In this document: piece by piece, positions 1 through 46,527 of the stretch
How the letters are laid out: every line of letters starts with the position of its first letter
How positions within the stretch are numbered: the first letter of the stretch is position 1
Assembly (NCBI GenBank): GCA_041661005.1
Contig: JBAZVG010000001.1
Coordinates: forward strand, 6,019-70,018
Source of the DNA: Minisyncoccota bacterium
GTDB taxonomy: Bacteria > Patescibacteriota > Minisyncoccia > Phycocordibacterales > UBA9973
Reading direction: 5' to 3'
DNA: 64,000 nucleotides
Translations under genes and position numbers: made by a program
Notes under the pieces: model-generated
What the model was told of the DNA's origin: nothing
Database searches by the model: none
Seen by the model: only the letters and a program-made list of their open reading frames with translations

Positions 1-152
1 TTTGCAGAGCGTTTTTCCACAAACTCATCAGAAATATAAATGCTTTCTCGCTTGGCAAGTTCTCGCAATTCGGCGAGCTGTGATTCAATAGAAAGGATTT
101 GTTTATCCTCAACATCTGTACTTTTGCGAGCATATAAAAAGTATTTAAGCAT
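1..152 (-). CDS. Serine recombinase (resolvase/integrase family), N-terminal fragment; the gene continues beyond the window start
   Basis: Minus-strand translation from the ATG at 152..150 gives MLKYFLYARKSTDVEDKQILSIESQLAELRELAKRE. This matches the serine-recombinase N-terminal motif Y-x-R-x-S-T-D-x-Q...SLE-Q with the catalytic Ser in place. The reading frame runs off the window edge and is not in the ORF track because it is partial. Confidence 0.5.
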   Translation of the reverse strand, partial: MLKYFLYARKSTDVEDKQILSIESQLAELRELAKRESIYISDEFVEKRSA

Positions 153-210
153 AGTTCTATTATACCATAACCCATAGTGTATAGCGCAAGAGCGAGTTAT
201 ACTGTTATCA

Positions 211-417
211 ATGAACGATGAAGCAAAAAGACTCGGTCAAAACTTAAAACGAATTAGAACTAAAAAAGGCATATCCCAAGGAGATATAGTAAAAACACTA
301 GATATGCCAAAAAGTTTTGTAAGTAGCATTGAAAACGGAAAAACAAATCCGACACTTTCAACGATTGCTAAAATAGCAAAAGCAATCGGGGTTTCGGTTG
401 GAGAATTGATGAAATAA
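211..417 (+). CDS. XRE/Cro-C1 family helix-turn-helix transcriptional regulator
   Basis: 68 aa. The stretch LKRIRTKKGISQGDIVKTLDMPKSFVSSIENGKTNPTLSTIAKIAKAIGVSVGEL is a typical HTH_3 pattern. It is divergent from the recombinase gene. Confidence 0.7.
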   Translation: MNDEAKRLGQNLKRIRTKKGISQGDIVKTLDMPKSFVSSIENGKTNPTLSTIAKIAKAIGVSVGELMK

Positions 418-424
418 TAACTAT

Positions 425-781
425 ATGAAAAGAAGTAACATCTTTTATTTAATATTTGTTTTGACTATTTTAGCAATTAGATTGGAGGTTTTTCTTTTTC
501 CTTCAAATAAAATAATAGTTGATGGCATAAGAATCAATCATTTTTGGATTGGAGTAATTTTGATTTTACTTGTCTTGTTTTTATCAAAAAATTATAATAT
601 AATAAAAATGGTTCTCCTCCCGATAGGCCTCGGAATAGTAGCGGATGAATTATTTTTTATGATTTTTAGCAATAGAACACTTGCCGATTATTGGTCAATT
701 TATTCTATAATCGGGGTTATAACAACGACAGTAATAATTTTTGTGATAAGGGAAAAGCTGGCAAGTAAAATTTATAAGTAA
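425..781 (+). CDS. Hypothetical integral membrane protein
   Basis: 118 aa with 3-4 hydrophobic helices. No recognisable motif. Confidence 0.4.
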   Translation: MKRSNIFYLIFVLTILAIRLEVFLFPSNKIIVDGIRINHFWIGVILILLVLFLSKNYNIIKMVLLPIGLGIVADELFFMIFSNRTLADYWSIYSIIGVITTTVIIFVIREKLASKIYK

Positions 782-799
782 TAATTTAATTAAAAAGAT

Positions 800-1237
800 A
801 TGAAAAAGAATTATTTCAAAATAGTACTGAGTGCGGTAATAATATCTGTAATCGGTGTTTATGTCATCGATTATTTTTCTCACTTGTTATTTTCAAATCC
901 AATGGAGACATTACCGTATTTCGTAGTGAAATTTATTCTATATTTTGTTTTTTCAATACTGTTCCTTTCTTTTATTGATGTAAGTAGAAAGGAATTTATA
1001 AAAGTAGTTGTTGGAGGAATTGTTGTTGCGTCGATATTTGGCATATATTATAATATTCTTCCGTCAGTATTTGATTTTTATCCCGCTGGAATTGCCTTAA
1101 ATGGTCTAACATTTTTAGGAATGGGACTTTTTGGAACTGGACTTGCTTTCGGAACTGTCCACACTCTTGCATTTGTCGGAGGATATTATTCAAGTAAATT
1201 CACGCTTAAGAGCTTTAATAATACCGATGTGCTATAA
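800..1237 (+). CDS. Hypothetical integral membrane protein
   Basis: 145 aa, multi-TM and Gly-rich C-terminus. No motif. Confidence 0.4.
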   Translation: MKKNYFKIVLSAVIISVIGVYVIDYFSHLLFSNPMETLPYFVVKFILYFVFSILFLSFIDVSRKEFIKVVVGGIVVASIFGIYYNILPSVFDFYPAGIALNGLTFLGMGLFGTGLAFGTVHTLAFVGGYYSSKFTLKSFNNTDVL

Positions 1238-1245
1238 TAACTAAC

Positions 1246-1701
1246 ATGAATAAAACTATCATAATTATTGCAGTAGTCGTCGTTGTCGGAATCGGAGCTT
1301 ATTATTTTGCCGTCAATAATGGTTCTAATGGGATTCCAGCGTATACTCCTCCAGTATCAAATAATAATCAAATACCTACGCCTACACCACCGGCACCAAC
1401 TTCAGTCACGACTCCAACCCCTACACCAACGACTCCCACTCCCACTCCAGTTACTAAAAACGTAACGATTCAAGGTTTTGCTTTTAACCAATCTTCCCTA
1501 ACTATCAAAAAAGGGGATACGGTTGTCTGGACCAATAAGGACTCCGCCCCGCATACCGTTACCGGCAATGCCGGAGGTCCTAAGAGTGGCACATTAAATC
1601 AAAATCAAACTTACAGCTTTACTTTCAATAGCGTTGGCACTTTCTCTTATAGATGTGCCCTTCATCCTTCTATGACAGGATCGGTGACGGTTACAGAATA
1701 A
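1246..1701 (+). CDS. Membrane-anchored cupredoxin (plastocyanin/azurin-like blue copper protein)
   Basis: N-terminal TM helix, then a Pro/Thr-rich linker (PTPTPPAPTSVTTPTPTPTTPTPTP), then a C-terminal domain with type-1 copper ligands: His in SAPHTV and C-x2-H-x3-M in YRCALHPSMTG. Confidence 0.65.
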   Translation: MNKTIIIIAVVVVVGIGAYYFAVNNGSNGIPAYTPPVSNNNQIPTPTPPAPTSVTTPTPTPTTPTPTPVTKNVTIQGFAFNQSSLTIKKGDTVVWTNKDSAPHTVTGNAGGPKSGTLNQNQTYSFTFNSVGTFSYRCALHPSMTGSVTVTE

Positions 1702-1705
1702 AATT

Positions 1706-2101
1706 GTGATTATTTGGCTAAAAAGAATCGGGTTAATTTTACTGATAATTTTTCTCGGGACAATAATTGACTACTTTGTCCACCAACTAAGCGATAATTT
1801 TACTGAGCAGTTTTCGTATTTTACCCACAAGATTGCTTTCGGTACATTGTGGGCGTTTGTCGCGTATTTAGTTTTCAGAAAATTTATCAAAACGCCTTTC
1901 TGGTTAGCATTTATAATGTCGGGAATGACATCGGTATTGCTTCAGTTTTTCTATTTTATCAATGAGCACGAACTGACATGGGTGACGGTATTTTTTCTGT
2001 TTGTGCATTTCTTAGTTTTCTTACTTCCCGGATATTATATTTGTAAGAAATATACGAATTTGTTTATAAATGAAAAAGAAAGTAAATCGCTTTTCTCCTA
2101 A
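1706..2101 (+). CDS. Hypothetical integral membrane protein
   Basis: 131 aa, 4 predicted TM helices. Confidence 0.4.
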   Translation: MIIWLKRIGLILLIIFLGTIIDYFVHQLSDNFTEQFSYFTHKIAFGTLWAFVAYLVFRKFIKTPFWLAFIMSGMTSVLLQFFYFINEHELTWVTVFFLFVHFLVFLLPGYYICKKYTNLFINEKESKSLFS

Positions 2102-2593
2102 AAAATTTGGCTATAGTAGATGAATCAGTAGGGAGTTTGACGATTTATTTAATCGGCAAAATTTTAACACGCGCACGGGTGGGTGGGGCAAGTGTTGTAT
2201 TTCATGTAGCCGACCTCCCCTCCAAAAAACTCTCCCTCCAAAAAATCTTTGGCTCGAACCTCTCCCTCCACGGACGCGTAGCGTCCGGAAACCCTTTCCC
2301 ACATTACGCAGAGCTTCGCTCTGCGCGCGAAAATTTTGGCGAAAAGTCCTTGAGTTTAATTACTGAGTGCTTATTAAACTCCGCTAGAACCTACTTTACC
2401 AAAAATTCAGGAGAAATGCCAAATCTAAAAGCGGACTCGGTTTTGCGAAAGCATTTTTTGGGGAAGCAGATTTCGCAAAACCTCGGCTAATATTTTTTTT
2501 GAATTCGGCGGGGTTAGATTCTATCCGCAGGAAGGGTTTGGGAGGGAATGCGGGTGAGTGTGTTTTGTTCTTAAAATTTGCTAAAATAACAAT

Positions 2594-3100
2594 ATGTCAA
2601 AAGAAATTCTCAATAGAATACTTGTTGTAGGAGATGCTGGCAGGGGAAAATCTACGTTGGCATCAAAAATTTCTGAAAAATTAGGGATACCGCATCATTC
2701 AACTGATGATTTTTATTATGAAGTAAAATTTTCTAAAGTTCGTGATAGGCCAGAAAGTATTACCAAAATTAAAGAAATTTTTGGAAAGAAAAAGTGGATC
2801 GTTGAAGGCACAAACAATCATCTAATTGAGCTCGGTCTTCACTCCGCTGATATAATTATTCATCTTAAATATAAAAGCATGCTTGCTCAGTGGGTGGTTC
2901 TCATTAAAAGATATTTCAAGAGAGAAAACGAGACTTTGGGGAAATTGTTTAGTCTTATGAAACATGTTTTTTATAAAAAATATAAATTAGGAGATAGAAA
3001 ATTGAAGCTAACCCATTCTGAACTTATTGAACCACACAAGCAAAAAGTAATTACGCTGTCTTCTTTTAAAGAAATTGATGGGTTTTTAAAATCTTTATAA
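2594..3100 (+). CDS. P-loop NTPase / small-molecule kinase-like protein (adenylate-kinase/AAA_17-like)
   Basis: Walker A motif VVGDAGRGKSTLA at the N-terminus; 168 aa. Confidence 0.5.
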   Translation: MSKEILNRILVVGDAGRGKSTLASKISEKLGIPHHSTDDFYYEVKFSKVRDRPESITKIKEIFGKKKWIVEGTNNHLIELGLHSADIIIHLKYKSMLAQWVVLIKRYFKRENETLGKLFSLMKHVFYKKYKLGDRKLKLTHSELIEPHKQKVITLSSFKEIDGFLKSL

Positions 3101-3114
3101 ATAATTTTATACAA

Positions 3115-3981
3115 ATGGAAAAGAGGAAATTATTAAGCAAAATTAGCCAAGAATTTCCAAACTTAAAGTGGAAAAACGCAGAACATAATACTGAAGGCTG
3201 GGATCATTATGTCATTATTTTAGATAATAAATATGTTTTTCGTTTTCCTAGAACCAAACAATATTTAAAAGTATTAAAAAATGAGGTATTCTTGCTCGAG
3301 TATTTGAAGAATAAAGTAAAAATTCCCATTCCGCAATATGCATATATTGCGAAAGATAAAAGTTTTGCCGGGTATTCTTTGATTCCGGGGACACAATTAA
3401 GGAAAAAAGTATTTGAATCGGTGTCTGAAAAAACAAAACATGCACTTGCCAAACAAATTGCGGATTTTCTTTCTTCTTTGCACAAAATACCAAACGAAGC
3501 TGTAAAAAAATATGGTGTGAAAATAGTTAATACTCAAAAACAATATAAAGAATTAATAATCAATACAAATAAATATATTTTTCCGAGAGTCTCAAAAAAA
3601 AGATCAGCTTTTGATAAATAACTACTTGAAAGAATTCAAAAATTATTTAAAATTTTCCAAAAAAGTTCTTACGCATAATGATCTTTATTCCAAACATATA
3701 CTTTTGGGAGAAAGTAAAAAAATATTTCTGGAATTATAGATTTTTCTGATAGAAAGATAGATGACCCAGCGAGAGATTTTACTGAAATGTGGGATTATGG
3801 AGAAAAATTTACCTTGGAAGTGTATAAAAATTACCAAGGTCCCAAAGATAAAGATTTTTTAAAGAGATCAATGATGTATTATAAAAGAATCCCTCTTTGG
3901 ACGATGATTTCTCCGTTTCAAGGCGGACGCGGGAAGTTTAAAAAGGGATATAAAATGTTTAAGGAATTGTTTTATGGATGA
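3115..3981 (+). pseudogene. Aminoglycoside/macrolide phosphotransferase (APH/Mph) family gene, disrupted by an in-frame stop and at least two frameshifts
   Basis: The N-terminal part (3115..3621, GWDHYVIILDNKYVFRFPR) matches the APH N-lobe. The same frame reads FDK-TAA-LLERIQKLF. The catalytic-loop motif HNDLYSKHIL (the HGDxxxxN equivalent) and IDFSD (the DFG-like Asp) lie in two other frames around 3660..3780. The last piece is ORF 3787..3981. The frame changes fall at A-homopolymers. Confidence 0.6.
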
Positions 3982-4435
3982 ATTTTTAGCTAAAATTTTA
4001 GAAACGCTAGGAGAGTTAAATGTAAAACCAGTAATTTATGGTTCGTTTGGTGTGGCTGTTTATCTTGGCAATTTTAAGAATTTTGAAGACATTGATGTTT
4101 TAATAGAAGATGAGTTTGTTAGTAATAGATGGAAAGAATTTAGAAAATTACTTGAGTCTAAGGGTTTTAATTTAATTAATGAAAAAGAACATGAGTTTGA
4201 ATTTAATGGTAAAAAAGTTGGATTTGCTTCAAAAAATATATTAATAAGAGATAAAATAATTAATGATTATTCAGAACTTGTTCAGTATAAAAATACAAAT
4301 GCTTTAACTTTAATGCCAGAAGGTTTTTTAAAAGCATATAAATTTAGCGTGAAAGATGGTTATAGAATTAATACAAGAGGGAAGAAAGATCAGGATATTA
4401 TTGAGAAGTTGGAAATTTATATAAAAAAGTTATAA
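3974..4435 (+). CDS. Pol-beta-like nucleotidyltransferase (small antibiotic NTase-like, cf. Lnu/ANT-type)
   Basis: 153 aa. GSFGVAVYLGN...DIDVLIEDEF fits the GS-x(n)-D-x-D nucleotidyltransferase signature. Size and pattern resemble small lincosamide/aminoglycoside NTases. Confidence 0.45.
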   Translation: MDEFLAKILETLGELNVKPVIYGSFGVAVYLGNFKNFEDIDVLIEDEFVSNRWKEFRKLLESKGFNLINEKEHEFEFNGKKVGFASKNILIRDKIINDYSELVQYKNTNALTLMPEGFLKAYKFSVKDGYRINTRGKKDQDIIEKLEIYIKKL

Positions 4436-4444
4436 TATCATTAT

Positions 4445-4831
4445 ATGAAAGCTTATTTAGTAATTAAATTTAAAGAAGATAATTCTAATCGAAAGACTAT
4501 CGAAGACATTTCAGCTGTTCTTGAAAAGATAGGCATGGAAACTACTGTCATGACTCGTGACTATGAAAAATGGGGAGAGGTAAGATTTACTCCCTTGGAA
4601 CTTATGCAAAAGACTTTTCAAATTATAGATTCATCTGACCTGCTTATTGTTGAATTTTCAGAAAAAGGTGTGGGGATAGGCATAGAAGCTGGTTATGCGT
4701 ATGCAAAAAATAAACCCATTTATGTTATATTAAAAGAAGGTTCAGATGTTTCAAACACACTTAGAGGTATAGCTAAAGATGTTATTTTTTATAATAATCC
4801 AGAAGAACTTATAGATAAGCTAAAAATTTAA
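4445..4831 (+). CDS. Nucleoside 2-deoxyribosyltransferase-like (NDT/Rcl/DNPH1 family) protein
   Basis: 128 aa. SDLLIVEFSEKGVGIGIEAGYAYAKNKPIYVI matches the conserved D...G(T)..E.GYA.A.(G)KP core of PF05014. Confidence 0.55.
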   Translation: MKAYLVIKFKEDNSNRKTIEDISAVLEKIGMETTVMTRDYEKWGEVRFTPLELMQKTFQIIDSSDLLIVEFSEKGVGIGIEAGYAYAKNKPIYVILKEGSDVSNTLRGIAKDVIFYNNPEELIDKLKI

Positions 4832-4839
4832 TAAATAAC

Positions 4840-6438
4840 ATGAAAAATTCCCCTTTAATTTACGGACTCCAAAGACCCAACGATAAACCTGATTTGATTT
4901 TAGTTAATTCACCAATAAGAGATTATACAGATGAAGAGAGACAGGAAACAGAACAATTACCAGCAATAGGCTTAGGATACATTGCAACTGTGTGTGAAAA
5001 AGCAGGTTTCAATGTTGGTTTGCTGGATGTAGAGGTTAATGGTTTGTCACCAGAAAAAGCAGCTGAAATAATTAATGAATCAAACCCTAGATGGGTTGGT
5101 GTTAATATGCTCACGCCAACTTTTCCTTTAGCTAAAAGAATTATTGCAAATATAAATAAGGGTATTCAAATTGAAGTTGGTGCTGCACATTCAAAAGCAT
5201 TATCAGAAAAAATATTAAGAGATTCAGAAATAGGTCACAAAATTGATTTAATCGTGCTTGAAGACGGTGAATTAATATCAAAAGGACTTCTTGAGGGAAA
5301 GAATCCCAGCGAAATGGGTGGGGTTGCTTATATAGACAAGTCTTCTGGTCAATATATTGAACACAGAGGAGACCCAGAAGGAAAATGGATTCCTAAAGAT
5401 TTAGATGCCTTACCATACTTGAATAGAAAATTTTTTAAAAATGGAATAATCAAATCGGAAGGAAGATTGGAAGCAAATATTGTAGGATCTCGAGGATGTC
5501 CTTTTTCTTGTCCATTTTGTGCTGGTGCAAAAGAAATGTTGATATTTGGGATTCGACAACGATCCATAGAAAATATTGTACAGGAAATAAAAAATCTAAA
5601 AGAACAAGGAGTAACGGCGATTAGATTTATTGATGATTTATTTTTATCAAGTCCAGCTCGCATAAAGCAATTTTTTAAACTAATGACTGAAGCAGGATTA
5701 AATGAACACGTTGTATGGGATGCAACAGGTAGAGCTAATATATTATCAAAACTAGACAAAGAAACATTAGAATTGATGGCGCGTAGTGGTGCTAGAGAAA
5801 TATCAATAGGCGTAGAGTCGGGATCACAAAGAATGCTCGATCTTATGAATAAAGGAATTAAACCAGAAATGGTAAGAAGCGCTATAGTAAATTTGGCATC
5901 TGTAGGAATACGCACAAAAACATATTTTATGTTGGGTATTCCTTCTGAAACGGAAGAAGAAGCGAAAGAGTCCGTAGCATTTATGCACGAATTACGTAAT
6001 CTTGCCAGAAAGACTGTTGCTGAGAATCCATTAACTCCAACAGGTAAACAGAATGAGGCTCAAAGTAGAGGAAGTATGTTTATTTTTCGACCATATCCAG
6101 GAACCCCTTTTAGTGAGCAGTTACAGGGTAAAAAAGAGTGGCCAGAAGGAACATGGAAAAATTCAGAACAACCATTATTTACAGAAGAAGAGATACTTGA
6201 GAGTTTTCATCCAACAACAATAAAACCTGGATTAGAAGTAAGACAAAAACATAGTTTCAGTACAACATTGCAATTGGGACCCTTGGAACCATCAAAAATA
6301 CAAGAAATGGTAGATGGTGCCATGCTCGCACAAAAGGAAGATATGGTTATACACGGGGAGTATTTGCCAGGCATAAAAGAAATAAAAGCTGAAAATAATG
6401 GAATAAATAAAACAGGAATGCCGTGGCGTATTGCTTAA
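4840..6438 (+). CDS. Cobalamin-binding-domain radical SAM enzyme (class B radical SAM)
   Basis: 532 aa. The N-terminal ~130 aa form a B12-binding-like Rossmann segment (LILVNSP...IGLGYIA...VGVNMLT). The CX3CX2C cluster is GSRGCPFSCPFCAG, and a TIM-barrel radical SAM core follows. Confidence 0.75.
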   Translation: MKNSPLIYGLQRPNDKPDLILVNSPIRDYTDEERQETEQLPAIGLGYIATVCEKAGFNVGLLDVEVNGLSPEKAAEIINESNPRWVGVNMLTPTFPLAKRIIANINKGIQIEVGAAHSKALSEKILRDSEIGHKIDLIVLEDGELISKGLLEGKNPSEMGGVAYIDKSSGQYIEHRGDPEGKWIPKDLDALPYLNRKFFKNGIIKSEGRLEANIVGSRGCPFSCPFCAGAKEMLIFGIRQRSIENIVQEIKNLKEQGVTAIRFIDDLFLSSPARIKQFFKLMTEAGLNEHVVWDATGRANILSKLDKETLELMARSGAREISIGVESGSQRMLDLMNKGIKPEMVRSAIVNLASVGIRTKTYFMLGIPSETEEEAKESVAFMHELRNLARKTVAENPLTPTGKQNEAQSRGSMFIFRPYPGTPFSEQLQGKKEWPEGTWKNSEQPLFTEEEILESFHPTTIKPGLEVRQKHSFSTTLQLGPLEPSKIQEMVDGAMLAQKEDMVIHGEYLPGIKEIKAENNGINKTGMPWRIA

Positions 6439-6466
6439 AATAATTTAATACATTTATATTAAAAAT

Positions 6467-7210
6467 ATGATTGAAGAAAAAGAGATAAAAATAAAAGTTG
6501 ATAAAAATATATTTGATGAGGCTAAAAAATATATTAAAGAACATACAAAACTGACAAAAACAAAATTTCAAATTGACGAATATTTTGATACAGAATTGTT
6601 TATGTTTACAAATTTAAATAGAGGAATTAGAGTTCGATATAATGATAAAATTCCTGAATCAGTAGAGTTTAAATCTTTATTTTGGAATAAATATGGTAAT
6701 CCTAATAATCCTTGGTATATTGAAGAGATAGGATTAAAAATACCGCTAGATACTGAAAGTAAAATAACTTTTCGTGCGATCTTAAAAAGATTTAATTTAT
6801 CATTAAATATACCTGAAGATATTGATGTTGACTATCAGTTATTCAAAGATTTATTAAACAAAATTGGATTATCTCCAAGAATTATTGTAACTAAAGAAAG
6901 AGAGGAATATGAAAATGATGAATCTACGTTTGTTTTTGATTATATAAAAGAACTTGGTTATTTTATTGAAATAGAAACAAAAGGTATTGATCCAATGGAT
7001 ATATTAAAAACAATACCTGTAATTAGTGATTATAGTGTTGTTCGAAATGGGTATAATGATATGGTTGGTGAAAATATTCCAAATTTAATATCAAATGATA
7101 TAAGGCAACAACTCTTTCGTTTAAATCATTCATGGAATATTCTAGAAACAGAAGTAGATATCGTAAATCAATTATTAAAAGAATATAAAGAAGTATGTCA
7201 AACCCAATAG
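6467..7210 (+). CDS. CYTH-domain protein (triphosphate tunnel metalloenzyme / class IV adenylyl cyclase-like)
   Basis: N-terminal EKEIKIKV (EiE-K motif), IRVRYND (R-x-R motif), C-terminal GYFIEIETKG (ExE motif). Its 3' end overlaps cmk by 16 nt. Confidence 0.55.
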   Translation: MIEEKEIKIKVDKNIFDEAKKYIKEHTKLTKTKFQIDEYFDTELFMFTNLNRGIRVRYNDKIPESVEFKSLFWNKYGNPNNPWYIEEIGLKIPLDTESKITFRAILKRFNLSLNIPEDIDVDYQLFKDLLNKIGLSPRIIVTKEREEYENDESTFVFDYIKELGYFIEIETKGIDPMDILKTIPVISDYSVVRNGYNDMVGENIPNLISNDIRQQLFRLNHSWNILETEVDIVNQLLKEYKEVCQTQ

Positions 7211-7905
7211 TGATTGCTATTGATGGACCAGCTTCTTCAGGAAAATCAACAATGGGGTTTTTGCTTGCTAAAGATCTTGGCTATCAATTTGTAGATTCTG
7301 GATTAATCTATCGTGTGGGTTGTGCATATATTTTAGAAAAAGGTATTGATATACTTAATATTTCAATGCTCGAAGAAGTTTTTCAAAACATGGATATTCA
7401 TTTTTATAACGAAGGATTAAAACAAAGAATTACTGCATTTGAGAATGATTATACAAATATTATTAATACCCCAGAAATAACAAAAATAGTTCCAGTTGTG
7501 GGAGCTAATCATACAGTACGGGAAAAAGTGCAAAAAATACAAAGAACTCTTGGTGCAGATAGAAATACTGTGATGGTTGGTCGAGATATTGGTAGCACAA
7601 TATTTCCCAACACACCACATAAATTTTTTATTACAGCATCTGCAGAAATACGAGCGCAAAGAAGATATAAACAATTGATTGATGGTGGAACAGTAGTAAC
7701 ATACGAAACTGTTTTTGAGGATATAAAACAACGGGATTTAAAAGATACAACAAGGGAAAGTTCCCCAATGATAATTCCAGAATCTGCAATAGTTATTGAT
7801 ACTTCTACACTTAGTATGGCTGAAACCGTTAATATGATTAAGATTACTTTTTTAAAAAATATTGAACCCAATAAGGAGCTACATTCTCAATTAAAGCTTA
7901 GATGA
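7195..7905 (+). CDS. cmk: Cytidylate kinase
   Basis: IAIDGPASSGKSTMGFLLAKDLGYQFVDSGLIYR is the canonical Cmk N-terminus with P-loop. Confidence 0.85.
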   Translation: MSNPIVIAIDGPASSGKSTMGFLLAKDLGYQFVDSGLIYRVGCAYILEKGIDILNISMLEEVFQNMDIHFYNEGLKQRITAFENDYTNIINTPEITKIVPVVGANHTVREKVQKIQRTLGADRNTVMVGRDIGSTIFPNTPHKFFITASAEIRAQRRYKQLIDGGTVVTYETVFEDIKQRDLKDTTRESSPMIIPESAIVIDTSTLSMAETVNMIKITFLKNIEPNKELHSQLKLR

Positions 7906-7935
7906 TTTATTAAAACTATATGATATTATGAAAAT

Positions 7936-8913
7936 ATGAATTATACAGATAGAGTATATGGAAGTTGCGAAATCACAGAACCTGTAATTTTGGAGTTAAT
8001 AAACTCTCCAACACTACAAAGATTAAAGGAAATTGATCAAGCGGGATATTTTGAACCACATTTCCCCAATACCAGACATTCACGTTTTGAACACTCTGTT
8101 GGAGTATATTTGCTTCTAAAAAAGTACGGTGCTCCTTTAGAAGAGCAGATTGCCGGTCTTATTCACGACGTGTCGCATTCCGCTTTTTCACATTGTATTG
8201 ATTATGTTTTAGATGGAGGATCAGGAAAGGAACACAACTATCAGGATGATATTTTTGATAATTTTGTAAAGAAATCGGAAATCCCTGCAATTCTAAAAAA
8301 ATATAATTTTGACCAAGATTATATTCTTAATGATAAAAATTTTCCACTTAAAGAAAAAGATTTACCCGATCTGTGCGCGGATAGGATAGATTATTCTTTG
8401 AGAACTGCTCTTGTTTTTGGGGTAGAAAAAGACGTGGAATATTTCCTTGATAATCTCACAGCGGAAGATAAAAACTGGGTTTATAAAAATTTTGAAAGCG
8501 CTAAAAAACATGCAGAACTTTTTAATAAATTAAACAATTATTGCTGGGCTGGGCTTCCTTCTGCTGTTATGTTTCGTACTGTCGGAGATTATCTTAAATA
8601 TGCTCTCTCTAAAAATTATATTTCCGAAAAAGATTTATATACAACCGATAAAATTGTTCTTGAAAAAATAGAACCTTGCATTAAGAATGATTCGCAACTA
8701 AACTTGTTATTTGAAAGAATGAATAATAAAATGGGTTTTAAAAATGATCCAAACGATTATGATGAGAAGGTATTTTGTAAATCACGAGTTATTGATCCAC
8801 TCTGTTTACATAACGGAGAAATAAAGAGAGTTTCTGAAATAGATTCAGGTTGGGCTGATGTAATTAAGTTAGAATCAAAACCAAAGGAATATTTTTTAAA
8901 GTTTGATAAATAA
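7936..8913 (+). CDS. HD-domain metal-dependent phosphohydrolase
   Basis: H...HD signature: RFEHSVGVYLL ... LIHDVSHSAFSH. Confidence 0.7.
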   Translation: MNYTDRVYGSCEITEPVILELINSPTLQRLKEIDQAGYFEPHFPNTRHSRFEHSVGVYLLLKKYGAPLEEQIAGLIHDVSHSAFSHCIDYVLDGGSGKEHNYQDDIFDNFVKKSEIPAILKKYNFDQDYILNDKNFPLKEKDLPDLCADRIDYSLRTALVFGVEKDVEYFLDNLTAEDKNWVYKNFESAKKHAELFNKLNNYCWAGLPSAVMFRTVGDYLKYALSKNYISEKDLYTTDKIVLEKIEPCIKNDSQLNLLFERMNNKMGFKNDPNDYDEKVFCKSRVIDPLCLHNGEIKRVSEIDSGWADVIKLESKPKEYFLKFDK

Positions 8914-8918
8914 TTTTT

Positions 8919-9605
8919 ATGCCCGACGACCAAAATTTAACCCAAAACCCAATTTCTGAAGAAAACTCTATTCCAGCAAGCCCTCAAGAGCCTATGGCGG
9001 ATACACCTGTTTCTACACCAGATCCTACCCCTGCCGAAATGCCCCTAGAAGCCCCAGAAACCTCTATAAACGCAGATATACCCATTTCCCTCAATAATGA
9101 TAATCCCCAAAATGAGCCTATTTCGACCCCTAACCCTGAAGAAGTGAAACCCGAAGAATTGCCAGCCGAAGGCGGAAAAATCGAGGGAATAACTCCTGTT
9201 TTATCTGAACCTTTGCAAACCCCTGAACCCCGAACGGCTCAAATACCAGTAAATGAGCCCTTCGGGAATACTCAGGACAAGCCGTTGGAATCTGTGCCAG
9301 TTTCAACCCCGCAACCACAATCAGTTTCCGATCCGATTTTTGCTGAACCGCAACAAAATAAAATTTCTCTCGCCCGCGAGCTTCTTGTAAAAGCTAGAAA
9401 CATGATTCAGTTTCGAAAAAGAAAAAAGCTGGATCGTGTGATGTCTTTGTTTCTCCAACGCTCTAAAATTACAAACGACGAAGTCGAAAAGTTTTTGCAC
9501 GTGTCTGATGCAACTGCAACTCGATATCTCTCACAACTAGAAAAGGAAGGAAAAATTAAACAGAGCGGAAAAACTGGAAAAGCGGTTTCGTATTCCAGAA
9601 TTTAA
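8919..9605 (+). CDS. Pro/Glu-rich low-complexity protein with C-terminal winged-helix-like DNA-binding segment
   Basis: The N-terminal 150 aa are P/E/T-rich. The C-terminus is KITNDEVEKFLHVSDATATRYLSQLEKEGKIKQSGKTGKAVSY. Confidence 0.4.
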   Translation: MPDDQNLTQNPISEENSIPASPQEPMADTPVSTPDPTPAEMPLEAPETSINADIPISLNNDNPQNEPISTPNPEEVKPEELPAEGGKIEGITPVLSEPLQTPEPRTAQIPVNEPFGNTQDKPLESVPVSTPQPQSVSDPIFAEPQQNKISLARELLVKARNMIQFRKRKKLDRVMSLFLQRSKITNDEVEKFLHVSDATATRYLSQLEKEGKIKQSGKTGKAVSYSRI

Positions 9606-10404
9606 TCTGAATTTTTTTTGGGGAGTGATTCTCGCGTGCACGCACGGGTGGGTAGGCTCGCGCGTACTCGCGCGAGCTGGGGCAAGCACGAGTATTTCGC
9701 CTCGGGCATTTCCGCTAGGGTGTCCATGACTAAAGGACGAGTGCCTGACCCGAATTGAAATCCAGAAATCGAAAGCGAAAGCGACACACTAAACACAATA
9801 TTGAAAAACGTAGAGTGGGGATGGCGAGGGCAGACTCCGCCAGCAGGCGGAGAGCCCGACCCGGGGAGAGGAAACTTCCTCTCCCCAAGAAGCGCGGGAA
9901 ACCGAACGGCTCATTTCCTGGTATTTGAGCCGTTCCGGTTTTCCCGCTCATAGGCATCTAGGCACTCGTAGCCCTAGCGGAAATGCCCGAGGCGGATGCC
10001 GAGGGTGCACTCTCAAAACTCTCAATAACCACCAAAATAGAAAAATGGTATAATGCCCGAGACAATGTTTTGAATTTTGAATTTGAATTTCTCCTGCGGG
10101 CAGAATTCGGAATCTCGCCAAAAGACACAGCCGAGGAAAATGGAAATCTAAATCCCCAAAATATTTGTTTCCATTTTCCGAGTCCGTTTGAATTAGCACA
10201 TTAGTAGAGCGTGGTAGAAATATTGAAGAAAAGAAAAAAGTGGAGCGTAAACCTTGGTTCGCTTGGAAACTTTTACAAATTTCTGCTAAAGTAGGTTCTA
10301 GCGGTATCGTAAAGGTACTCCCTCGGTCGTAGATCTACGGGCGAGACCAGCCGATGTAGCTCAGCTTGCCCCGCCTGAGCTAGGCGGGGTGAAGTAGAGC
10401 ATAG

Positions 10405-10477
10405 GCCGATGTAGCTCAGTTGGTAGAGCATCGCTTTCGTAAAGCGAGGGTCGACAGTTCAATCCTGTCCATCGGCT
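10405..10477 (+). tRNA. tRNA-Thr (anticodon CGT)
   Basis: Manual cloverleaf: acceptor gccgatg/catcggc, D-arm gctc/gagc, anticodon stem tcgct/agcga, loop ttCGTaa, T-arm gacag/ctgtc. No encoded CCA. Confidence 0.85.
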
Positions 10478-10493
10478 CCGCAATAAAAATATC

Positions 10494-11411
10494 ATGGACA
10501 AAGAAAAAGATAAAAATGAAATAGAAAATGAGATAGAAAGACTTGAGGTGCAAATGCTTGCGCCGGATTTTTGGAGTGATAAAGCTAAAGCTCAGAATAT
10601 TTTGAAAGAAATTTCCGATTTGAAAAATAAAAAAGAAGGCTTAGGAAAATACGATAAAGGTAACGCAATTATCACTATAATTTCCGGTGCGGGTGGGGAT
10701 GATGCCGAAGATTTTTCGAGCATGCTTCTCTCAATGTATATGAAGTATGTGAATAAAAAGGGATGGGATATTTCTTTTATTCATGAACACAAGAATGATC
10801 ATAATGGATACAGGAATGTATCTTTTGAAATAAAGGGGAAAAACCCGCCTAGACTCGGCGAGGCTGGTGTTTATGAAACGCTAAAGAACGAGGGAGGGGT
10901 GCATCGTCTTGTGCGGATTTCGCCTTTTAACGCGAAAAAATTAAGACATACTTCTTTTTCCTTGGTTGAAGTTTTACCTAAGTTTTCTAAACTTGAAGAA
11001 CATGATATCGTGATACCCGATGCTGATTTGAAAATTGAATTTGCGCGTTCTTCGGGTCCAGGGGGACAAAATGTTAACAAGAGGGAAACAGCTGTTCGTA
11101 TAGTTCATATCCCTACGGGAATTTCTGTTCACGCATCCGGAGAACGTAGCCAAGAGCAAAATCGTGAACAAGCTATGGCAATTCTCCGAGCGAAAATTTT
11201 CAAAAAGGCCCAAGAAGAAAAAAAATCAGTGGAAGAAAGTATGAAAATAAATAAAGGTACAGAGATAGAATGGGGAAATCAGATTCGCTCATATGTGTTG
11301 CATCCGTATAAAATGGTCAAAGATCATAGGACTGAAGCTGAAACTTCAAATATTGACGCTGTTTTAGATGGAGGACTTGATATTTTCATTGAGGCAGAAA
11401 AGAATTTGTGA
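10494..11411 (+). CDS. prfB: Peptide chain release factor 2
   Basis: SPF tripeptide (RISPFNAKK) and GGQ motif (SGPGGQNVNKRETAVRIVHIPTGI). It starts 17 nt after tRNA-Thr, and no upstream +1 frameshift segment is present. Confidence 0.85.
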   Translation: MDKEKDKNEIENEIERLEVQMLAPDFWSDKAKAQNILKEISDLKNKKEGLGKYDKGNAIITIISGAGGDDAEDFSSMLLSMYMKYVNKKGWDISFIHEHKNDHNGYRNVSFEIKGKNPPRLGEAGVYETLKNEGGVHRLVRISPFNAKKLRHTSFSLVEVLPKFSKLEEHDIVIPDADLKIEFARSSGPGGQNVNKRETAVRIVHIPTGISVHASGERSQEQNREQAMAILRAKIFKKAQEEKKSVEESMKINKGTEIEWGNQIRSYVLHPYKMVKDHRTEAETSNIDAVLDGGLDIFIEAEKNL

Positions 11412-42099: not shown

Positions 42100-42915
42100 A
42101 TGCAAATTCAAGAAATAAAAAAAAACGCTATTCACTCCCGCAAACCAATTTTGTTATTTTGGCTATCTATCATTGTTGCAGTCGGACTTTTGAGTCCTAT
42201 AACAGAAATAAATGCGCAGGCGTCGAGGAAGGCACCGTGTTTTATCCCCAATGGGGACGGGACAGGCGGTAGAGTTTTAACGATGAATCGACAGGAATGC
42301 GAATCGTTTTTTGGAACATTTGATGCCACTTCGGCTCCAGCACGGGAGATAAGGGGTGAAAATCCTAGCGATATTGACTGCATTCTCTATGACGCGGATG
42401 GGGTATCAAATCCTAGAATTGTAAGGATGACTCGAATTGTATGTGAATCCTATCATGGAACACCTAGTGCAGCGAATCTTGGCACGGGTCAACCTGCCAC
42501 TGGTACTAATGTTAATTCGGCTCCAGTTGTCGCTCCCACTCAGTCTGTTACTGTATTTTCTTTTGCAGAGATAGACACGGATAAACCAGATGTTGAGGGA
42601 GGCTTGGTGCCCTGTGGTCATCCGGATGCTCAAGGTAATATAACTAACCCCTGTAGTTTCAAGGATGCTCTAACTCTCATAAACACCATAATAAAGTTTA
42701 TTCTTTTTGATTTAGCGATTCCGATTGCCGCCGTGATGTTCGCTTATGCGGGTTTTAAACTGGTAACTTCCGGAGGTAGCTCTGAGGCTAGGGGGCAGGC
42801 GAAAAATATTTTCTCCAACGCAGTTTTTGGGCTGGTGATTGCCGCTGGCGCTTGGCTCATTATCAGGACGATATTATCAGTTTTGGGTTATCAAGGGGCT
42901 TGGATTGGATTTTAA
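42100..42915 (+). CDS. Secreted protein, paralog 1 of a five-member tandem family with a C-terminal two-TM pilin-like module
   Basis: Signal peptide, Cys-containing N-domain, C-terminal IPIAAVMFAYAGFKLVTSGGSSEARGQAKNIFSNAVFGLVIAAGAW. Nucleotides 42130..42500 are near-identical to 42975..43345. Confidence 0.45.
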   Translation: MQIQEIKKNAIHSRKPILLFWLSIIVAVGLLSPITEINAQASRKAPCFIPNGDGTGGRVLTMNRQECESFFGTFDATSAPAREIRGENPSDIDCILYDADGVSNPRIVRMTRIVCESYHGTPSAANLGTGQPATGTNVNSAPVVAPTQSVTVFSFAEIDTDKPDVEGGLVPCGHPDAQGNITNPCSFKDALTLINTIIKFILFDLAIPIAAVMFAYAGFKLVTSGGSSEARGQAKNIFSNAVFGLVIAAGAWLIIRTILSVLGYQGAWIGF

Positions 42916-42951
42916 TGTGGTGTATAATACCGTTGTGAATTTTTTAATTTT

Positions 42952-43686
42952 ATGAGGAGAAATTTTAACAAACCAATTTTGTTATTTTGGCTATCTATCA
43001 TTGTTGCAGTCGGACTTTTGAGTCCTATAACAGAAATAAATGCGCAGGCGTCGAGGAAGGCACCGTGTTTTATCCCCAATGGGGACGGGACAGGCGGTAG
43101 AGTTTTAACGATGAATCGACAGGAATGCGAATCGTTTTTTGGAACATTTGATGCCACTTCGGCTCCAGCACGGGAGATAAGGGGTGAAAATCCTAGCGAT
43201 ATTGACTGCATTCTCTATGACGCGGATGGGGTATCAAATCCCAGAATTGTAAGGATGACTCGAATTGTATGTGAATCCTATCATGGAACACCTAGTGCAG
43301 CGAATCTTGGCACGGGTCAACCTGCCACCAGTACTAATATTAATTCGTCTCCAGTTGTCGCTCCCACTCAGTCTGTTACTTATGATTCATCTCCATGTAT
43401 TGGCAAGATCTGCAACCCTCTGGGTACTAAAGGGGTAGCCAGTATCCCAGCTTTCATTCAAAAACTTTTAGAAGGCGTCTTGCAGATTGGCATACCCATC
43501 GTGGCGCTCGCTATCATTTATTGTGGTTTCCTGTTTGTGGCGGCTCGGGGTAATTCGGAAAAATTAGGCAAAGCCAAAGATGCCCTGCTCTATACCCTGA
43601 TCGGCGCGGCGATACTTTTGGGGTCGTGGGCTATTGCGCAGATGATATCCGCTACTGTCACTGGACTTGGGGCTGGAGTAGTATAA
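42952..43686 (+). CDS. Paralog 2 (recent tandem duplicate of paralog 1 over the first ~125 codons)
   Basis: Identical N-domain. C-terminal GIPIVALAIIYCGFLFVAARGNSEKLGKAKDALLYTLIGAAILLGSWAI. Confidence 0.45.
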   Translation: MRRNFNKPILLFWLSIIVAVGLLSPITEINAQASRKAPCFIPNGDGTGGRVLTMNRQECESFFGTFDATSAPAREIRGENPSDIDCILYDADGVSNPRIVRMTRIVCESYHGTPSAANLGTGQPATSTNINSSPVVAPTQSVTYDSSPCIGKICNPLGTKGVASIPAFIQKLLEGVLQIGIPIVALAIIYCGFLFVAARGNSEKLGKAKDALLYTLIGAAILLGSWAIAQMISATVTGLGAGVV

Positions 43687-43709
43687 TTTTTATTATAGAT
43701 TAAAATAAT

Positions 43710-44159
43710 ATGAAAAAAATCTTACCATATCTTCTGATGCTGACTATCCTTGTGGGACTTCTTAGTCCAGTAACGGTGACGCGTGGAGCTGATGTTTTTG
43801 ATCCTACTAATAGATCTAATACAGTTAATGTGTCAGAATCGTCAACTTCGTCCACTTTTGTGACTTGTAGGTTGGATAATAAACCAAAACTTCAGCATCT
43901 TTTAAATTACGCCACTTGCATCATAAATACGTCGGTGATTCCTTTGATTTTTGCTTTGGCGATTGTGATGTTTGTCTGGGGAGTGGTGCAGTTTGTGATA
44001 AATAGCGACGACGAAGCAAAAAAGACTAAAGGCAAGATGTTTATGATTTGGGGCATCGTCGCTTTGACGGTGATGGTTTCGGTTTGGGGCTTGGTGGCGA
44101 TACTGGGAAATACTTTCGGCGTTAATACCGGCATTATTCCACAGGTCAAGTCCCCATAG
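43710..44159 (+). CDS. Paralog 3 of pilin-like family
   Basis: IPLIFALAIVMFVWGVVQFVINSDDEAKKTKGKMFMIWGIVALTVMVSVWGLVAILGNTFGVN. Confidence 0.45.
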   Translation: MKKILPYLLMLTILVGLLSPVTVTRGADVFDPTNRSNTVNVSESSTSSTFVTCRLDNKPKLQHLLNYATCIINTSVIPLIFALAIVMFVWGVVQFVINSDDEAKKTKGKMFMIWGIVALTVMVSVWGLVAILGNTFGVNTGIIPQVKSP

Positions 44160-44162
44160 TTG

Positions 44163-44228
44163 CCCCGTAGTGAATTTTGGCGAGGCGCAAAGCGCAAGTT
44201 ATAAACATCGCCAAAATCTACTACGGGG
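44163..44228. repeat. REP-like long hairpin repeat, copy 1
   Basis: ccccgtagtgaattttggcga ... tcgccaaaatctactacgggg: a 21-bp stem with one G-U and one A-C mismatch that are conserved in all copies. Confidence 0.6.
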
Positions 44229-44256
44229 TTGCTTTGTTTTATTTATGTTTGTGGTA

Positions 44257-44334
44257 CCCCGTAGTGAATTTTGGCAACATGTTTTAGATTGGTTAGTTTT
44301 AAACAAACTAACCTTGCCAAAATCTACTACGGGG
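44257..44334. repeat. REP-like long hairpin repeat, copy 2 (different loop)
   Basis: ccccgtagtgaattttggcaa ... ttgccaaaatctactacgggg. Confidence 0.6.
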
Positions 44335-44386
44335 TGGTATTATTAAGGAATATTATTAATATTATTATTTAGAGTCGTAAAAAATT

Positions 44387-44794
44387 ATGAAAAAGAAATT
44401 AGTTGTTTTGTCAGGTTTTGTTTTAGGTTTGGCTCCGGTTGTAGCGTTGGCGCAAATTAATCTTGGTGGTGGTCCTACCGGAAGTTGCGTTCTTGGTAAT
44501 GGAGGTACAATTTTTGGTATATTTTGCCGAGTTGGGCAGATTCTTAATTCCATTGTGCCCATATTGATTGCCCTAGGAATTGTTTACTTTGTTTGGGGAG
44601 TCATTTCTTATGTAATCGGTGGCGACGAAGAAGCAAAGAAGAAAGGAAGAGACAAAATAATCTATGGCATTATTGGTTTAGCTGTTATTGTTGCGGTCTG
44701 GGGGCTTGTGGGAATTTTAACTAGAACCTTTGGTGTTAATAATACATTTCAAGGAAATATTCCAACTATTCCTGTTCCCAATCAAGTTAATTAG
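44387..44794 (+). CDS. Paralog 4 of pilin-like family
   Basis: VPILIALGIVYFVWGVISYVIGGDEEAKKKGRDKIIYGIIGLAVIVAVWGLVGILTRTFGVNN. Confidence 0.45.
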   Translation: MKKKLVVLSGFVLGLAPVVALAQINLGGGPTGSCVLGNGGTIFGIFCRVGQILNSIVPILIALGIVYFVWGVISYVIGGDEEAKKKGRDKIIYGIIGLAVIVAVWGLVGILTRTFGVNNTFQGNIPTIPVPNQVN

Positions 44795-44810
44795 TATCAT
44801 TTCTAATGAT

Positions 44811-45140
44811 ATGGATATATTCTCCACCAATGTGGCTTATGCGGATGGGCGTTTTGACAAGTTTTTGACGAATGTCAACACAGAAATCATCAATCCACTC
44901 ATACTGTTCCTTTTTGCTCTCGCGATGGTGTTTTTCCTCTACGGCGTGTTTGAGTTTATTGCAAATGGCGCCAATGATGAGAAAAAGACAACTGGGAAAA
45001 GTCACATGATTTGGGGTGTTGTCGGGCTTACCATTATGATGGGGGTTTGGGCGATTCTTAATATTATTTTGAGTACGTTTGATATTCCAAAAAGTCAGAT
45101 AAACCCAGAACAGGGAACTGTGACTTTGCCACCAAAATAG
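44811..45140 (+). CDS. Paralog 5 of pilin-like family (no obvious signal peptide)
   Basis: NPLILFLFALAMVFFLYGVFEFIANGANDEKKTTGKSHMIWGVVGLTIMMGVWAIL. Start chosen at Met 44811 downstream of the paralog 4 stop. Confidence 0.4.
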   Translation: MDIFSTNVAYADGRFDKFLTNVNTEIINPLILFLFALAMVFFLYGVFEFIANGANDEKKTTGKSHMIWGVVGLTIMMGVWAILNIILSTFDIPKSQINPEQGTVTLPPK

Positions 45141-45211
45141 TAGAAAGATTCTATAGAAACAAAAAGGCGATTCAGAACGAATCGCCTTTTTGTTTTGTTA
45201 CTAGATTAACT

Positions 45212-45973: not shown

Positions 45974-46049
45974 AAGTCAATAGCACATGACCCGCATTTA
46001 ACCTGTTAGTAGACAGATCGAGAGAGTTAATTTTACACTCAATCAGATC

Positions 46050-46436: not shown

Positions 46437-46527
46437 ATGAATATGCTAACATTTTTAAATTTAAAAGTCAATGGCCCCGTGCAACAAGTTGCGCCGGGGC
46501 CATAGAGATGATTTGAGCTGCTTGGTT

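Follow-up and report, generated by a model that had tools for sequence, protein, structure and literature searches.

What is the DNA at the left end of a 64-kb window of contig JBAZVG010000001.1 from a Minisyncoccota bacterium, and what put it beside a tRNA-Thr gene? We analysed this window (island coordinates below are positions in it). Its first ~10 kb had been read, in an earlier note made from the letters alone, as an accessory or mobile block that stops just before tRNA-Thr. Comparison with 89 related loci supports this (labels such as L001 and L018 stand for loci or contigs of relatives), and we put at about three in four the probability that positions 1..10321 make up most of an integrative genomic island of ~12 kb, from a family spread across Patescibacteria. 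A large serine recombinase (LSR), two pairs of inverted repeats and a structured RNA are the features examined below. Genomic islands of Patescibacteria have been counted by the hundred in surveys, where they are not dissected and no mechanism is given (PMC12455944). Our literature search found no account of these elements, of tRNA-Thr as their target, of a layout with two pairs of inverted repeats or of the RNA.

The window opens with the N-terminal 50 codons of an LSR on the minus strand (152..3, within 1..152; translation MLKYFLYARKSTDVEDKQ...) and, divergent from it, an XRE-family helix-turn-helix regulator on the plus strand (211-417; Pfam HTH_3, E 5e-15), the very arrangement that had first suggested a mobile element. 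The 50 amino acids available match Pfam Resolvase at E 1.2e-4 and 22.6 bits, against a cut-off of 23.3, and the same stretch has 87-93% nucleotide identity to L001-L010 and up to 89% to L014. In L002 (87% nucleotide identity over the window's part) the LSR is full length, 537 aa as called, with Resolvase (PF00239), Recombinase (PF07508) and, weakly, Zn_ribbon_recom (PF13408) domains; judged by the domains of this relative, the window recombinase is an integrase-type LSR. A homologue scan of one genome per species, with a full-length relative recombinase as query, found 79 loci, almost all in Patescibacteria. Amino acid identities of 84-92% across Paceibacteria, Nomura-, Davies- and Zambryskibacteria indicate recent horizontal spread between classes. 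At least 22 metagenome contigs have an XRE gene whose 68-aa product is identical to that of the window, always adjoining an LSR and followed by differing cargo, and in L002 the sequence reads as an element of low guanine-plus-cytosine (GC) content embedded in visibly higher-GC host DNA. That the recombinase might be a lone resolvase of some other element had been held out as grounds for dropping the mobile-block idea; we found no sign of this, and the relatives carry a full LSR tied to the island's non-coding blocks.

Where does such a recombinase insert its element? Around the LSR we scanned 35 loci for tRNA genes, and in nearly all of them the LSR gene meets, end to end, a tRNA-Thr gene (GGT, CGT or TGT) of the opposite strand, the two 3' ends having a few bases in common. 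The neighbour is tRNA-Thr(CGT) in L015, L018, L031, L055 and L060, while more distant recombinases lie at tRNA-Gly or tmRNA. The crossover point can be read from alignments, as family members hold a second, inverted copy of the LSR 3' end at an internal junction (site 2). Aligned in the LSR sense, the gene end and its copy share a run ...TTTGATTGCGGAG and then split: the gene side continues as CCG..., in which the tRNA acceptor and T arm are read in reverse complement, and the copy side as T(A/C)CCTTTTAAAC..GCTAGAACCTAYTTTAGCAAAAAT. The right end of the window island reads in reverse ...CGACCGAG-GGAG-TACCTTTACGATACCGCTAGAACC, the right junction of L018 reads ...TTTAATTTAAT-GAG-TATCTTTTAAAATCAGCTAGAACC, and L058 and L060 are alike. 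The sole sequence common to the left attachment site (attL), site 2 and the right attachment site (attR) is GGAG/GAG, or CTCC on the tRNA strand, which is the discriminator base plus CC. A core of merely GAG/GGAG fits a serine-recombinase crossover with a 2-nt overlap, and the insertion has the short core, site specificity and lack of long terminal direct repeats by which LSR elements are recognised.

In the window the attR core CTCC lies at 10318..10321 on the plus strand (GGAG on the other), where the reverse complement runs ...cgaccgagGGAG and, across the junction, tacctttacgataccgctagaacc. It was compared with site 2 of relatives, ...gattgcGGAG followed by taccttttaaac..gctagaacc, and with their attL, ...gattgcGGAG followed by ccg of the tRNA. 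In this alignment TAGAAC stands at +18-23 in the right (Q) arm and TCGAAC at +14-19 in the tRNA arm, an offset resembling the known shift of the zinc-ribbon-domain motif between attP and attB half-sites. Two observations on the target tRNA may be added. The LSR coding tail in L011-L075 (e.g. L002:2047-2176) has an invariant GGCTCGAACC / GGATTGAACC ~115 nt from the core that resembles the T-loop sequence of the targeted tRNA arm, followed by two GAA-triloop hairpins, one per strand. In L002 (1757-2065) the target tRNA-Thr(GGT) is split in its anticodon loop by a ~230-nt insert with a weak Rfam group I intron match (17 bits, E 0.06); ARAGORN misses this gene, and a LAGLIDADG-like open reading frame (ORF) lies just upstream (L002 1140-1727).

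Just outside the island stands the host gene tRNA-Thr(CGT) (10405-10479, plus strand; called by ARAGORN and Rfam), which the same element family targets in other genomes. In L018, L031, L060 and L030 the genes for tRNA-Thr(GGT) and tRNA-Thr(CGT) are 5-39 nt apart, so that the position between them is empty, and the island follows the CGT gene or lies on its other side. In L049 and L058 the order is tRNA-Thr(GGT), LSR, ~10 kb and tRNA-Thr(CGT), and in L058 prfB and ftsE come next, as in the window. From these relatives, the window island was probably inserted at a tRNA-Thr(GGT) just beyond the left window edge, and would sit between that gene and tRNA-Thr(CGT) at 10405. The host-side flank B' (10322..10404, plus strand) consists of a spacer with the palindrome CGTAGATCTACG and then a 5' tRNA-Thr fragment, made up of 10350-10364 plus TAGAGCAT and split by a G+C hairpin. 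The first piece is the 15-nt duplication of the tRNA 5' end already noticed; it recurs 55 nt from the gene, start to start, with 0 expected by chance. The fragment at 10350-10402 comprises the acceptor strand and D arm of tRNA-Thr, directly upstream of the intact gene, and the loop of the hairpin, CTGAGCTA, complements TAGCTCAG in the D arm. This 5' fragment is not accounted for by crossing over of the LSR at the tRNA 3' end.

Composition, too, marks the block as foreign, as the earlier note had proposed to check: island GC is 0.30-0.33 against ~0.39 elsewhere in the window, GC at third codon positions (GC3) is 0.12-0.26 for most island genes against 0.31-0.42, and the tetranucleotide distance reaches z 3.3-4.5, with the shift falling at the predicted boundary. 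Relatives with the same genes in the same order, which would have spoken for resident DNA, were looked for and not found. The cargo operon at 2594..8913 is absent from related islands, which hold other genes instead, DsbD, redoxin, CsoR and a YHS protein in L001 and an AAA_21 ATPase with two DNA methylases in L018. Present/absent polymorphism among relatives, foreign composition of the block and variable cargo together are what is expected of a tRNA island. The family, which recurs in many lineages, is a concrete gene-exchange vehicle of tiny Patescibacteria genomes, with a defined integrase, target and core, and it moves defence, metal and nucleotide-metabolism genes between classes in which the integrases are up to 92% identical.

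Could the block be a prophage, a phage satellite or an integrated plasmid? A serine integrase beside an XRE repressor is the typical control module of a temperate phage, and the large ornate RNAs ROOL and GOLLD are typically phage-borne and near tRNAs (PMC12286853). Against this, the window, L018 and L001 have no capsid, terminase, tail, replication or transfer genes, blastn against phage and plasmid collections returned nothing, and the cargo is made up of restriction-modification, ATPase, metal/redox and nucleotide-enzyme genes. An 18-nt invariant motif of the island RNA, searched in 2.9 million viral contigs, gave 47 matches, all to one unrelated phage gene. With neither structural, packaging and replication genes nor a presence in viral collections, such an origin is very unlikely.

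If the block is an island, what are its two G+C-rich non-coding blocks, at 2107-2593 and 9606-10350, whose common motif had suggested the two ends or scars of one element? Block 1 opens with a first copy of the 5' module of the island RNA (2131..2192, plus strand), consisting of GGGAG, a hairpin and the stem CRCGMAYGGG/GGGKCAAG. Essentially every family member has the module, placed before its LSR-tail copy, and the module stem stays paired through double changes (helix 2). The next part, P* (2211..2367), repeats in inverted orientation the final ~55 codons of the LSR gene together with the 3' trailer, on the plus strand and so opposite to the real gene. It is 77% identical to the LSR 3' end of L002, with a peptide, DLPSKKLSLQKIFGSNL..AELRSARENF, that can be set against DLPSKKISLQKIFGSNL..AELRSARQNF of the L002 LSR. 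P* ends in a degenerate att core, CTGAG at 2363-2367 (consensus GCGGAG); in relatives it parts from the LSR's own 3' end exactly after GGAG. There follows Q (2368..2575, plus strand), an inner copy of the right arm recognised by alignment with the reverse-complemented attR arm, L018 and L003. Q contains a 27-nt core repeat (2381-2407) and a hairpin with loop TTTTGGGGA, and ends ...CCGCAGG-GGGTTTGGGAGGGAATGCGGG. In block 2 the structured RNA is followed by Q* (10093..10317, minus strand), the outer copy of the right arm, inverted with respect to Q and 90% identical to the arm of L001 and L003. Between the two blocks the inverted repeat can be traced at 2381-2407 with 10278-10304 (27 nt, 93%) and at 2453-2488 with 10129-10164 (36 nt, 72%).

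The family layout, from left to right, is tRNA, P (the LSR's own 3' end), a segment with LSR, XRE and small cargo, P*, Q, a segment with cargo, a winged helix-turn-helix (wHTH) gene and the RNA, then Q* and host DNA. P*-core-Q is the mirror image of the attP (Q*-core-P) expected on excision, and on this comparison block 1 reads as an internal, inverted attP-like site and no random scar. The idea that the blocks are ends holds in part. Both carry inverted copies of the right arm and together they bound the cargo segment, and block 2 includes the right end of the island at attR, whereas block 1 is internal and the left end, on the far side of the recombinase, falls outside the window. The shared motif itself is not an att or scar repeat; it belongs to the structured-RNA module. 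We also considered whether the motif could be decayed LSR codons (PTREW) and rejected this, as in a side-by-side alignment the LSR-like copy begins only at GACCTCCCCTCC.

These arms bear on whether the sequence could be native chromosome next to a recombinase of another upstream element, or else an error of metagenome-bin assembly. The window does start inside the recombinase gene, and repeats can confuse assemblers. Yet the order LSR, XRE, module with P*, Q, cargo, wHTH, RNA, Q* and host recurs in the independent assemblies L018, L033, L014, L016 and L024, the arms of relatives tie both blocks to the LSR's own 3' end, the 27-nt repeats of the window are too short to mislead an assembler, and composition shifts at the predicted boundary. 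We consider either explanation extremely improbable.

Do the repeats still recombine? In L018, L014 and L016, P and P* are 96-100% identical and Q and Q* 91-99% identical over 170-380 nt. Within each element P and P* are near-identical, yet between elements they differ by 10-30%, a pattern that requires continuing exchange between the copies, be it by the LSR or by host recombination. P* and its core are retained in essentially every family member, down to ~60% LSR identity. The P arm has two hairpins preserved by compensatory changes, one of them within the WAELRSA codons, where synonymous changes leave peptide and stem intact.

Each segment has been found either way round. The cargo segment is oriented as in the window in L018, L033, L014, L016, L019, L024 and more than 20 metagenome contigs. 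It has the opposite orientation in L003, L028, L139 and L203, in which block 1 passes directly into block 2 read as its reverse complement. L030 and L023 have the recombinase segment turned round, with P* rather than the gene adjoining the tRNA. Tandem islands with one tRNA between them are found at L038/L250 and probably at L210. A simpler description, that the window is 'inverted' relative to L001, was discarded: block 1 is collinear with L001, and only loci of the L003 type are inverted. A search with the RNA 3'-end pattern TAGCGGAA-N3-8-CCGAGGCGGATGCCGAGG matched at least 120 metagenome contigs, and among the 120 matches listed, to which all contig fractions here refer, 29 end within 280 nt past the RNA, inside the repeated arm. 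Two contig pairs, L156 with L160 and L240 with L244, share RNA cores at 100% identity along 330 nt, next to flanks that differ. The first pair parts ~90 nt past the RNA at an inverted copy of GGGTTTGGGGAGGAATGCGCGC, and the flanks of the second are homologous, clearly diverged. Identical RNAs with altered flanks are a sign that elements have rearranged, or passed the RNA from one to another, very recently.

Could the element be an ordinary one with a single attP, its inner junction and repeats a historical accident and its orientations the product of rare, functionless host recombination? RecA acts well on inverted repeats of 100-380 bp, the window copy shows that repeats can decay, the architecture is variable (L023, L042, L060), and the orientation differences have been seen between genomes, not yet inside one population. 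This alternative is possible and we take it seriously, though it is not the one we favour. It does not readily explain why P* and the core persist in essentially all members, why P* stays 96-100% identical to its own LSR 3' end while elements diverge, which needs continuing exchange, or why each segment is found in both orientations in separate lineages. Contigs that break preferentially in the arm, and identical RNAs with rearranged flanks (L156, L160), also speak against it.

Our favoured reading, an integrative island with an internal inverted attP-like junction, would work as follows. The LSR would bring about recombination between the outermost 3' end of tRNA-Thr and a site carried by the circular form, crossing over within CTCC; integration and excision would very likely follow standard LSR chemistry. 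The integrated form has a recombinase segment bounded by P and P* and a cargo segment bounded by Q and Q*, and recombination at or within the repeats would flip either segment and keep the copies alike. A circular form with two equivalent attP sites would explain why either P or P* is found beside the tRNA. We think it somewhat likely that the internal junction is live or was so recently, with recombination at the core or in the arms flipping the segments. The RNA module points toward the core at each inner junction and is expanded, at the cargo end, to ~395 nt. It is unlikely, though worth stating, that these elements form a distinct class of serine-integrase element, with two inverted attP copies and segments flipping like the halves of the 2-micron circle. 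In such a class structured RNAs, among them a new ornate class of ~400 nt, would be transcribed across the junctions and might sense or set whether the element is integrated, excised or flipped (e.g. as a pair of sense decoy and antisense acting on the integrase message), or the arms might let incoming single-stranded DNA fold into attP after natural transformation.

That junction module leads to the RNA of block 2 (9620..10014, plus strand, ~395 nt), which alignments, covariation and a profile match (nhmmer, E 8e-96) delimit. It sits between the stop codon of the wHTH gene and the Q* arm, with the right arm and attR following. The motif that the blocks had been seen to share is real and longer than first described: the pattern GGGAG-N(5-35)-CRCGMAYGGG-N(2-32)-GGGKCAAG occurs twice in the 64 kb (2131-2192 and 9621-9686), both times on the plus strand, and in 0/100 shuffles, and BLAST of both blocks against the whole window gave no further copies. 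The second copy of the 5' module (9621-9686) begins the RNA. The stem of the module, with a hairpin set into it, covers 9632-9690. Other landmarks are a long-range helix of 23 bp between 9698-9720 and 9972-9994, a GNRA-type hairpin GCGAAAGC, the block GGGGAGAGGAAACTTCCTCTCCCC (9863-9886), an optional palindromic hairpin (9902-9941) and an invariant 3' motif ...TAGCGGAAATGCCCGAGGCGGATGCCGAGG ending at 10004. Homologues were found on at least 120 metagenome contigs with the 3'-end pattern and, full-length, at 13 genome loci with an nhmmer sequence profile, in addition to L003 and the window; in L060 nhmmer matched the 5' module only. Family members are 320-500 nt long, start with (A)GGGAG, and alternate invariant blocks with hairpins that are variable in length and sequence, or missing.

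We tested for covariation with the RNAalifold consensus of a 54-sequence alignment (the RNA alignment has 596 columns), against 500 shuffles and controls with slid pairing partners. The consensus contains 80 pairs, with 89.7% of cells paired. Double changes affect 36 pairs, against 21 +/- 2.2 in shuffles, and 243 cells are compensated, against 100 in shuffled and 39-73 in slid controls; on each of five covariation measures 0/500 shuffles attain the observed value, and with slid partners the values drop 2-4 times. There are 289 G-U pairs against 148 A-C mismatches, and the alifold energy is -164 kcal/mol forward against -152 kcal/mol reverse; the G-U excess and better forward fold place the RNA on the plus strand, co-directional with the wHTH gene. 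Compensatory changes beyond the controls, together with a strand preference, are what a structured RNA should leave in an alignment, and the block-2 sequence has both. An Rfam 15 search of both blocks, at the gathering threshold and then up to E 10, gave no family, and no covariance-model match was obtained to GOLLD (RF01998), ROOL (RF03087), HEARO, OLE, raiA, group I/II introns, RNase P or tmRNA. We regard the block-2 RNA as a candidate new RNA class without an Rfam counterpart. With >130 examples and strong covariation, this ~400-nt RNA would join the few large bacterial RNAs of unknown function.

Is there an RNA at all, or do the blocks act only as DNA, as arms, operators or gene remnants whose covariation comes from palindromes or gene conversion? 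Att arms and an LSR-tail copy demonstrably make up large stretches of block 1 as well as block 2 in its 3' part, the P-arm hairpins are DNA palindromes on both strands, and promoter or terminator signals do not rise above chance. The ~395-nt RNA body, on the other hand, is no part of the inverted repeats, and each element has it only once. Its 36 double-change pairs, its optional hairpins of varied length and sequence at fixed positions, and the excess of G-U over A-C, which favours one strand, are features that binding palindromes or gene conversion would not yield; moreover, parts of the RNA are 93-95% identical where the LSR is merely 62-65% identical. A role as DNA only is accordingly improbable. 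On the reading we favour, the RNA is probably co-transcribed after the wHTH gene. An extended -10-like TGGTATAAT at ~10046 is conserved among close relatives only, and we do not claim it as a promoter.

What the RNA does we can only suggest, though its island context makes a tractable setting for finding out. One guess, a doubtful one, is that transcripts start at the GGGAG modules and cross the junctions, so that once the element is excised or flipped they could pair with one another or with the integrase message, which would couple integrase expression to the state of the element. Tentatively, the large RNA might be a passenger with a role directed at the host or at competitors, as is suspected for ROOL and GOLLD. 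A side observation concerns a ~40-nt palindromic mini-hairpin, GAACGGCTCA-loop-TGAGCCGTTC, which occurs in the window both at 9226-9265, in frame within the low-complexity part of the wHTH gene, and at 9902-9941, in a variable stem of the RNA; the pair is found at the same two locations in L018, L019, L033 and L055. The mini-hairpin resembles a very small mobile palindrome, akin to Rickettsia palindromic elements (RPE) or miniature inverted-repeat transposable elements (MITE).

Several points weigh against the interpretation as a whole. The window begins inside the LSR gene, so attL and the upstream tRNA come from relatives only, and neither a circular form nor the empty site of this very strain has been seen. 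The P-loop kinase and wHTH proteins of this island are not on record, and prfB and the cupredoxin only on contigs of at most 1.5 kb. The inversions could stem from host homologous recombination rather than the LSR. In the window itself the inverted repeats are poor, with 27 nt at 93% and 36 nt at 72%, and the core of site 2 has degenerated; this copy may thus have lost its ability to flip or to excise. Nor is the architecture uniform: L042 and L023 are variants, and L060 and L156 likewise fall outside the simple scheme. As for the RNA, the small members L060 and L077 lack the long form and keep the 5' module alone, so that the long form is an accessory of the cargo end and cannot be needed for recombination itself. 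A scan around it found promoter and terminator sites no more often than chance, none convincing, and its AGGGAG start lies only 5-15 nt past the upstream stop codon.

Two of these variants can be described more closely. L023 (9424-11855) has a recombinase unit alone, between P*, at tRNA-Thr(TGT), and P, in which XRE and the Q arm are not seen; L042 (~7900-8120) has an inner junction where 15 nt of tRNA 3' end follow the core. The window copy, with its diverged Q and Q*, degenerate core and broken APH gene, is probably old and perhaps fixed, and its RNA retains every invariant position despite the decay of the island around it.

How does the island compare with known systems? It resembles LSR elements, such as those of the phiC31 and Bxb1 integrases, the SCCmec Ccr recombinases and TnpX of Tn4451, and LSR islands, in the Resolvase, Recombinase and Zn_ribbon domains of the enzyme, in a recombinase gene at the edge beside a 2-4 nt core without long direct repeats, and in site-specific insertion with an XRE-type regulator next to the integrase. 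The end of a tRNA gene is a target typical of tyrosine integrases and uncommon for LSRs. The island differs from LSR elements in aiming at the last bases of such a gene, in having a second, inverted attP-like junction with two inverted repeat pairs of 100-380 bp, in placing the last ~55 codons of the integrase gene within a repeat, and in that no candidate for a recombination directionality factor was identified. The built-in inverted attP and two homogenised repeat pairs are unusual for serine-integrase elements, and if the flipping is enzymatic, inversion control would be new to what this enzyme class does. Genome engineering could, besides, profit from so compact a serine integrase, whose target is a tRNA end that is conserved universally.

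With tycheposons and islands of the Islander type it shares a position at a tRNA gene of a streamlined genome and variable adaptive or defence cargo. LSRs have been reported in 27/937 tycheposons and related cryptic elements (Hackl et al., bioRxiv 10.1101/2020.12.28.424599). The Patescibacteria island departs from them in having no replication genes, and in its two-segment inverted-repeat layout and its structured RNA. Since crossing over takes place at the last bases of the tRNA gene, it also neither restores a tRNA half nor displaces a tRNA fragment in the usual way.

Invertible systems are alike in part of the layout. Hin, Gin and Cin and the FLP system of the yeast 2-micron circle also have segments bounded by inverted repeats that occur in both orientations, with the recombinase encoded beside a repeat, and the circular form of the island, like the 2-micron circle, would be split into two unique segments by inverted sites. 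The enzyme here is a large integrase-type serine recombinase, neither a small invertase nor a tyrosine recombinase. At ~500 aa, with repeats of 100-380 bp, the system is not of the Hin/Gin/Cin type, which has an invertase of ~190 aa, a Fis-dependent enhancer and hix/gix sites of 26 bp, far shorter than the island repeats. Unlike the 2-micron circle, the island is integrated and not a plasmid, and its two orientations are known from comparison between genomes. Two inverted att copies further recall the folded attP of CTX-phi and integron attC sites. Pairing of P with P* and Q with Q* in a single strand could rebuild a duplex attP, which is an idea only; those systems use tyrosine recombinases and short loops, whereas here the loops would be 2-8 kb and the serine recombinase cuts double strands.

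The block-2 RNA has the traits of GOLLD, ROOL, HEARO, OLE and raiA: a length of several hundred nucleotides, many covarying helices, invariant single-stranded blocks, a GNRA-type hairpin and optional stems. ROOL and GOLLD are carried on mobile elements, typically phages, near tRNA genes (PMC12286853); the block-2 RNA, too, lies on a mobile element close to tRNA genes, in islands of Patescibacteria rather than in phages. It is set apart from these ornate RNAs by adjoining a recombination arm and by having its 5' module duplicated at the other junction of the element.

The cargo that the earlier note had listed as odd for so small a genome is all present, at or near the positions given there. 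The recombinase segment holds, at 425..2101 on the plus strand, three small hydrophobic ORFs, called as membrane proteins and without a Pfam match (425-781, 800-1237 and 1706-2101), and a membrane-anchored cupredoxin (1246-1701; Copper-bind, 9.5e-10). This part is variable among relatives, where its place is taken by an ORF of 147 aa (L001-L010) or by an AAA_21 ATPase (L018). The cargo operon, running from the P-loop kinase to HD on the plus strand with a GC3 of 0.12-0.25, comprises a P-loop kinase-like gene (2594-3100), an APH gene broken into three ORFs (3115-3621, 3611-3739 and 3787-3981), a small nucleotidyltransferase (NTase, 3974-4435), a Nuc_deoxyrib_tr-like gene (4445-4831), a B12-binding radical SAM gene (4840-6438), a CYTH gene (6467-7210), a CMP kinase (7195-7905) and an HD gene (7936-8913). 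Its part from 4445 to 8913, with 2-deoxyribosyltransferase-like, B12 radical SAM, CYTH, CMP kinase and HD genes, resembles a nucleotide-modifying pathway of unknown product. We searched the cargo for defence systems with PADLOC and, the matches being merely weak (PDC-M51A, VakA), rejected its identification as a known one.

The wHTH gene (8919-9605, plus strand) follows the operon and encodes a low-complexity N-terminus and a C-terminal winged helix (HTH_24, E 2.8e-4, slightly below the Pfam cut-off); searches for a function gave generic winged-helix matches only. Its C-terminal 78 aa, 63-93% identical, are encoded directly upstream of the RNA in ~35 of the 120 contigs. Outside the island, a release factor 2 gene (10494-11411) begins 14 nt past tRNA-Thr and is short, at 305 aa, with a PCRF match from profile position 95 on; that of L018 is likewise short (304 aa). 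Farther along the window, 42500-47500 is a second tetranucleotide outlier, with z 3.2 and a GC of 0.42.

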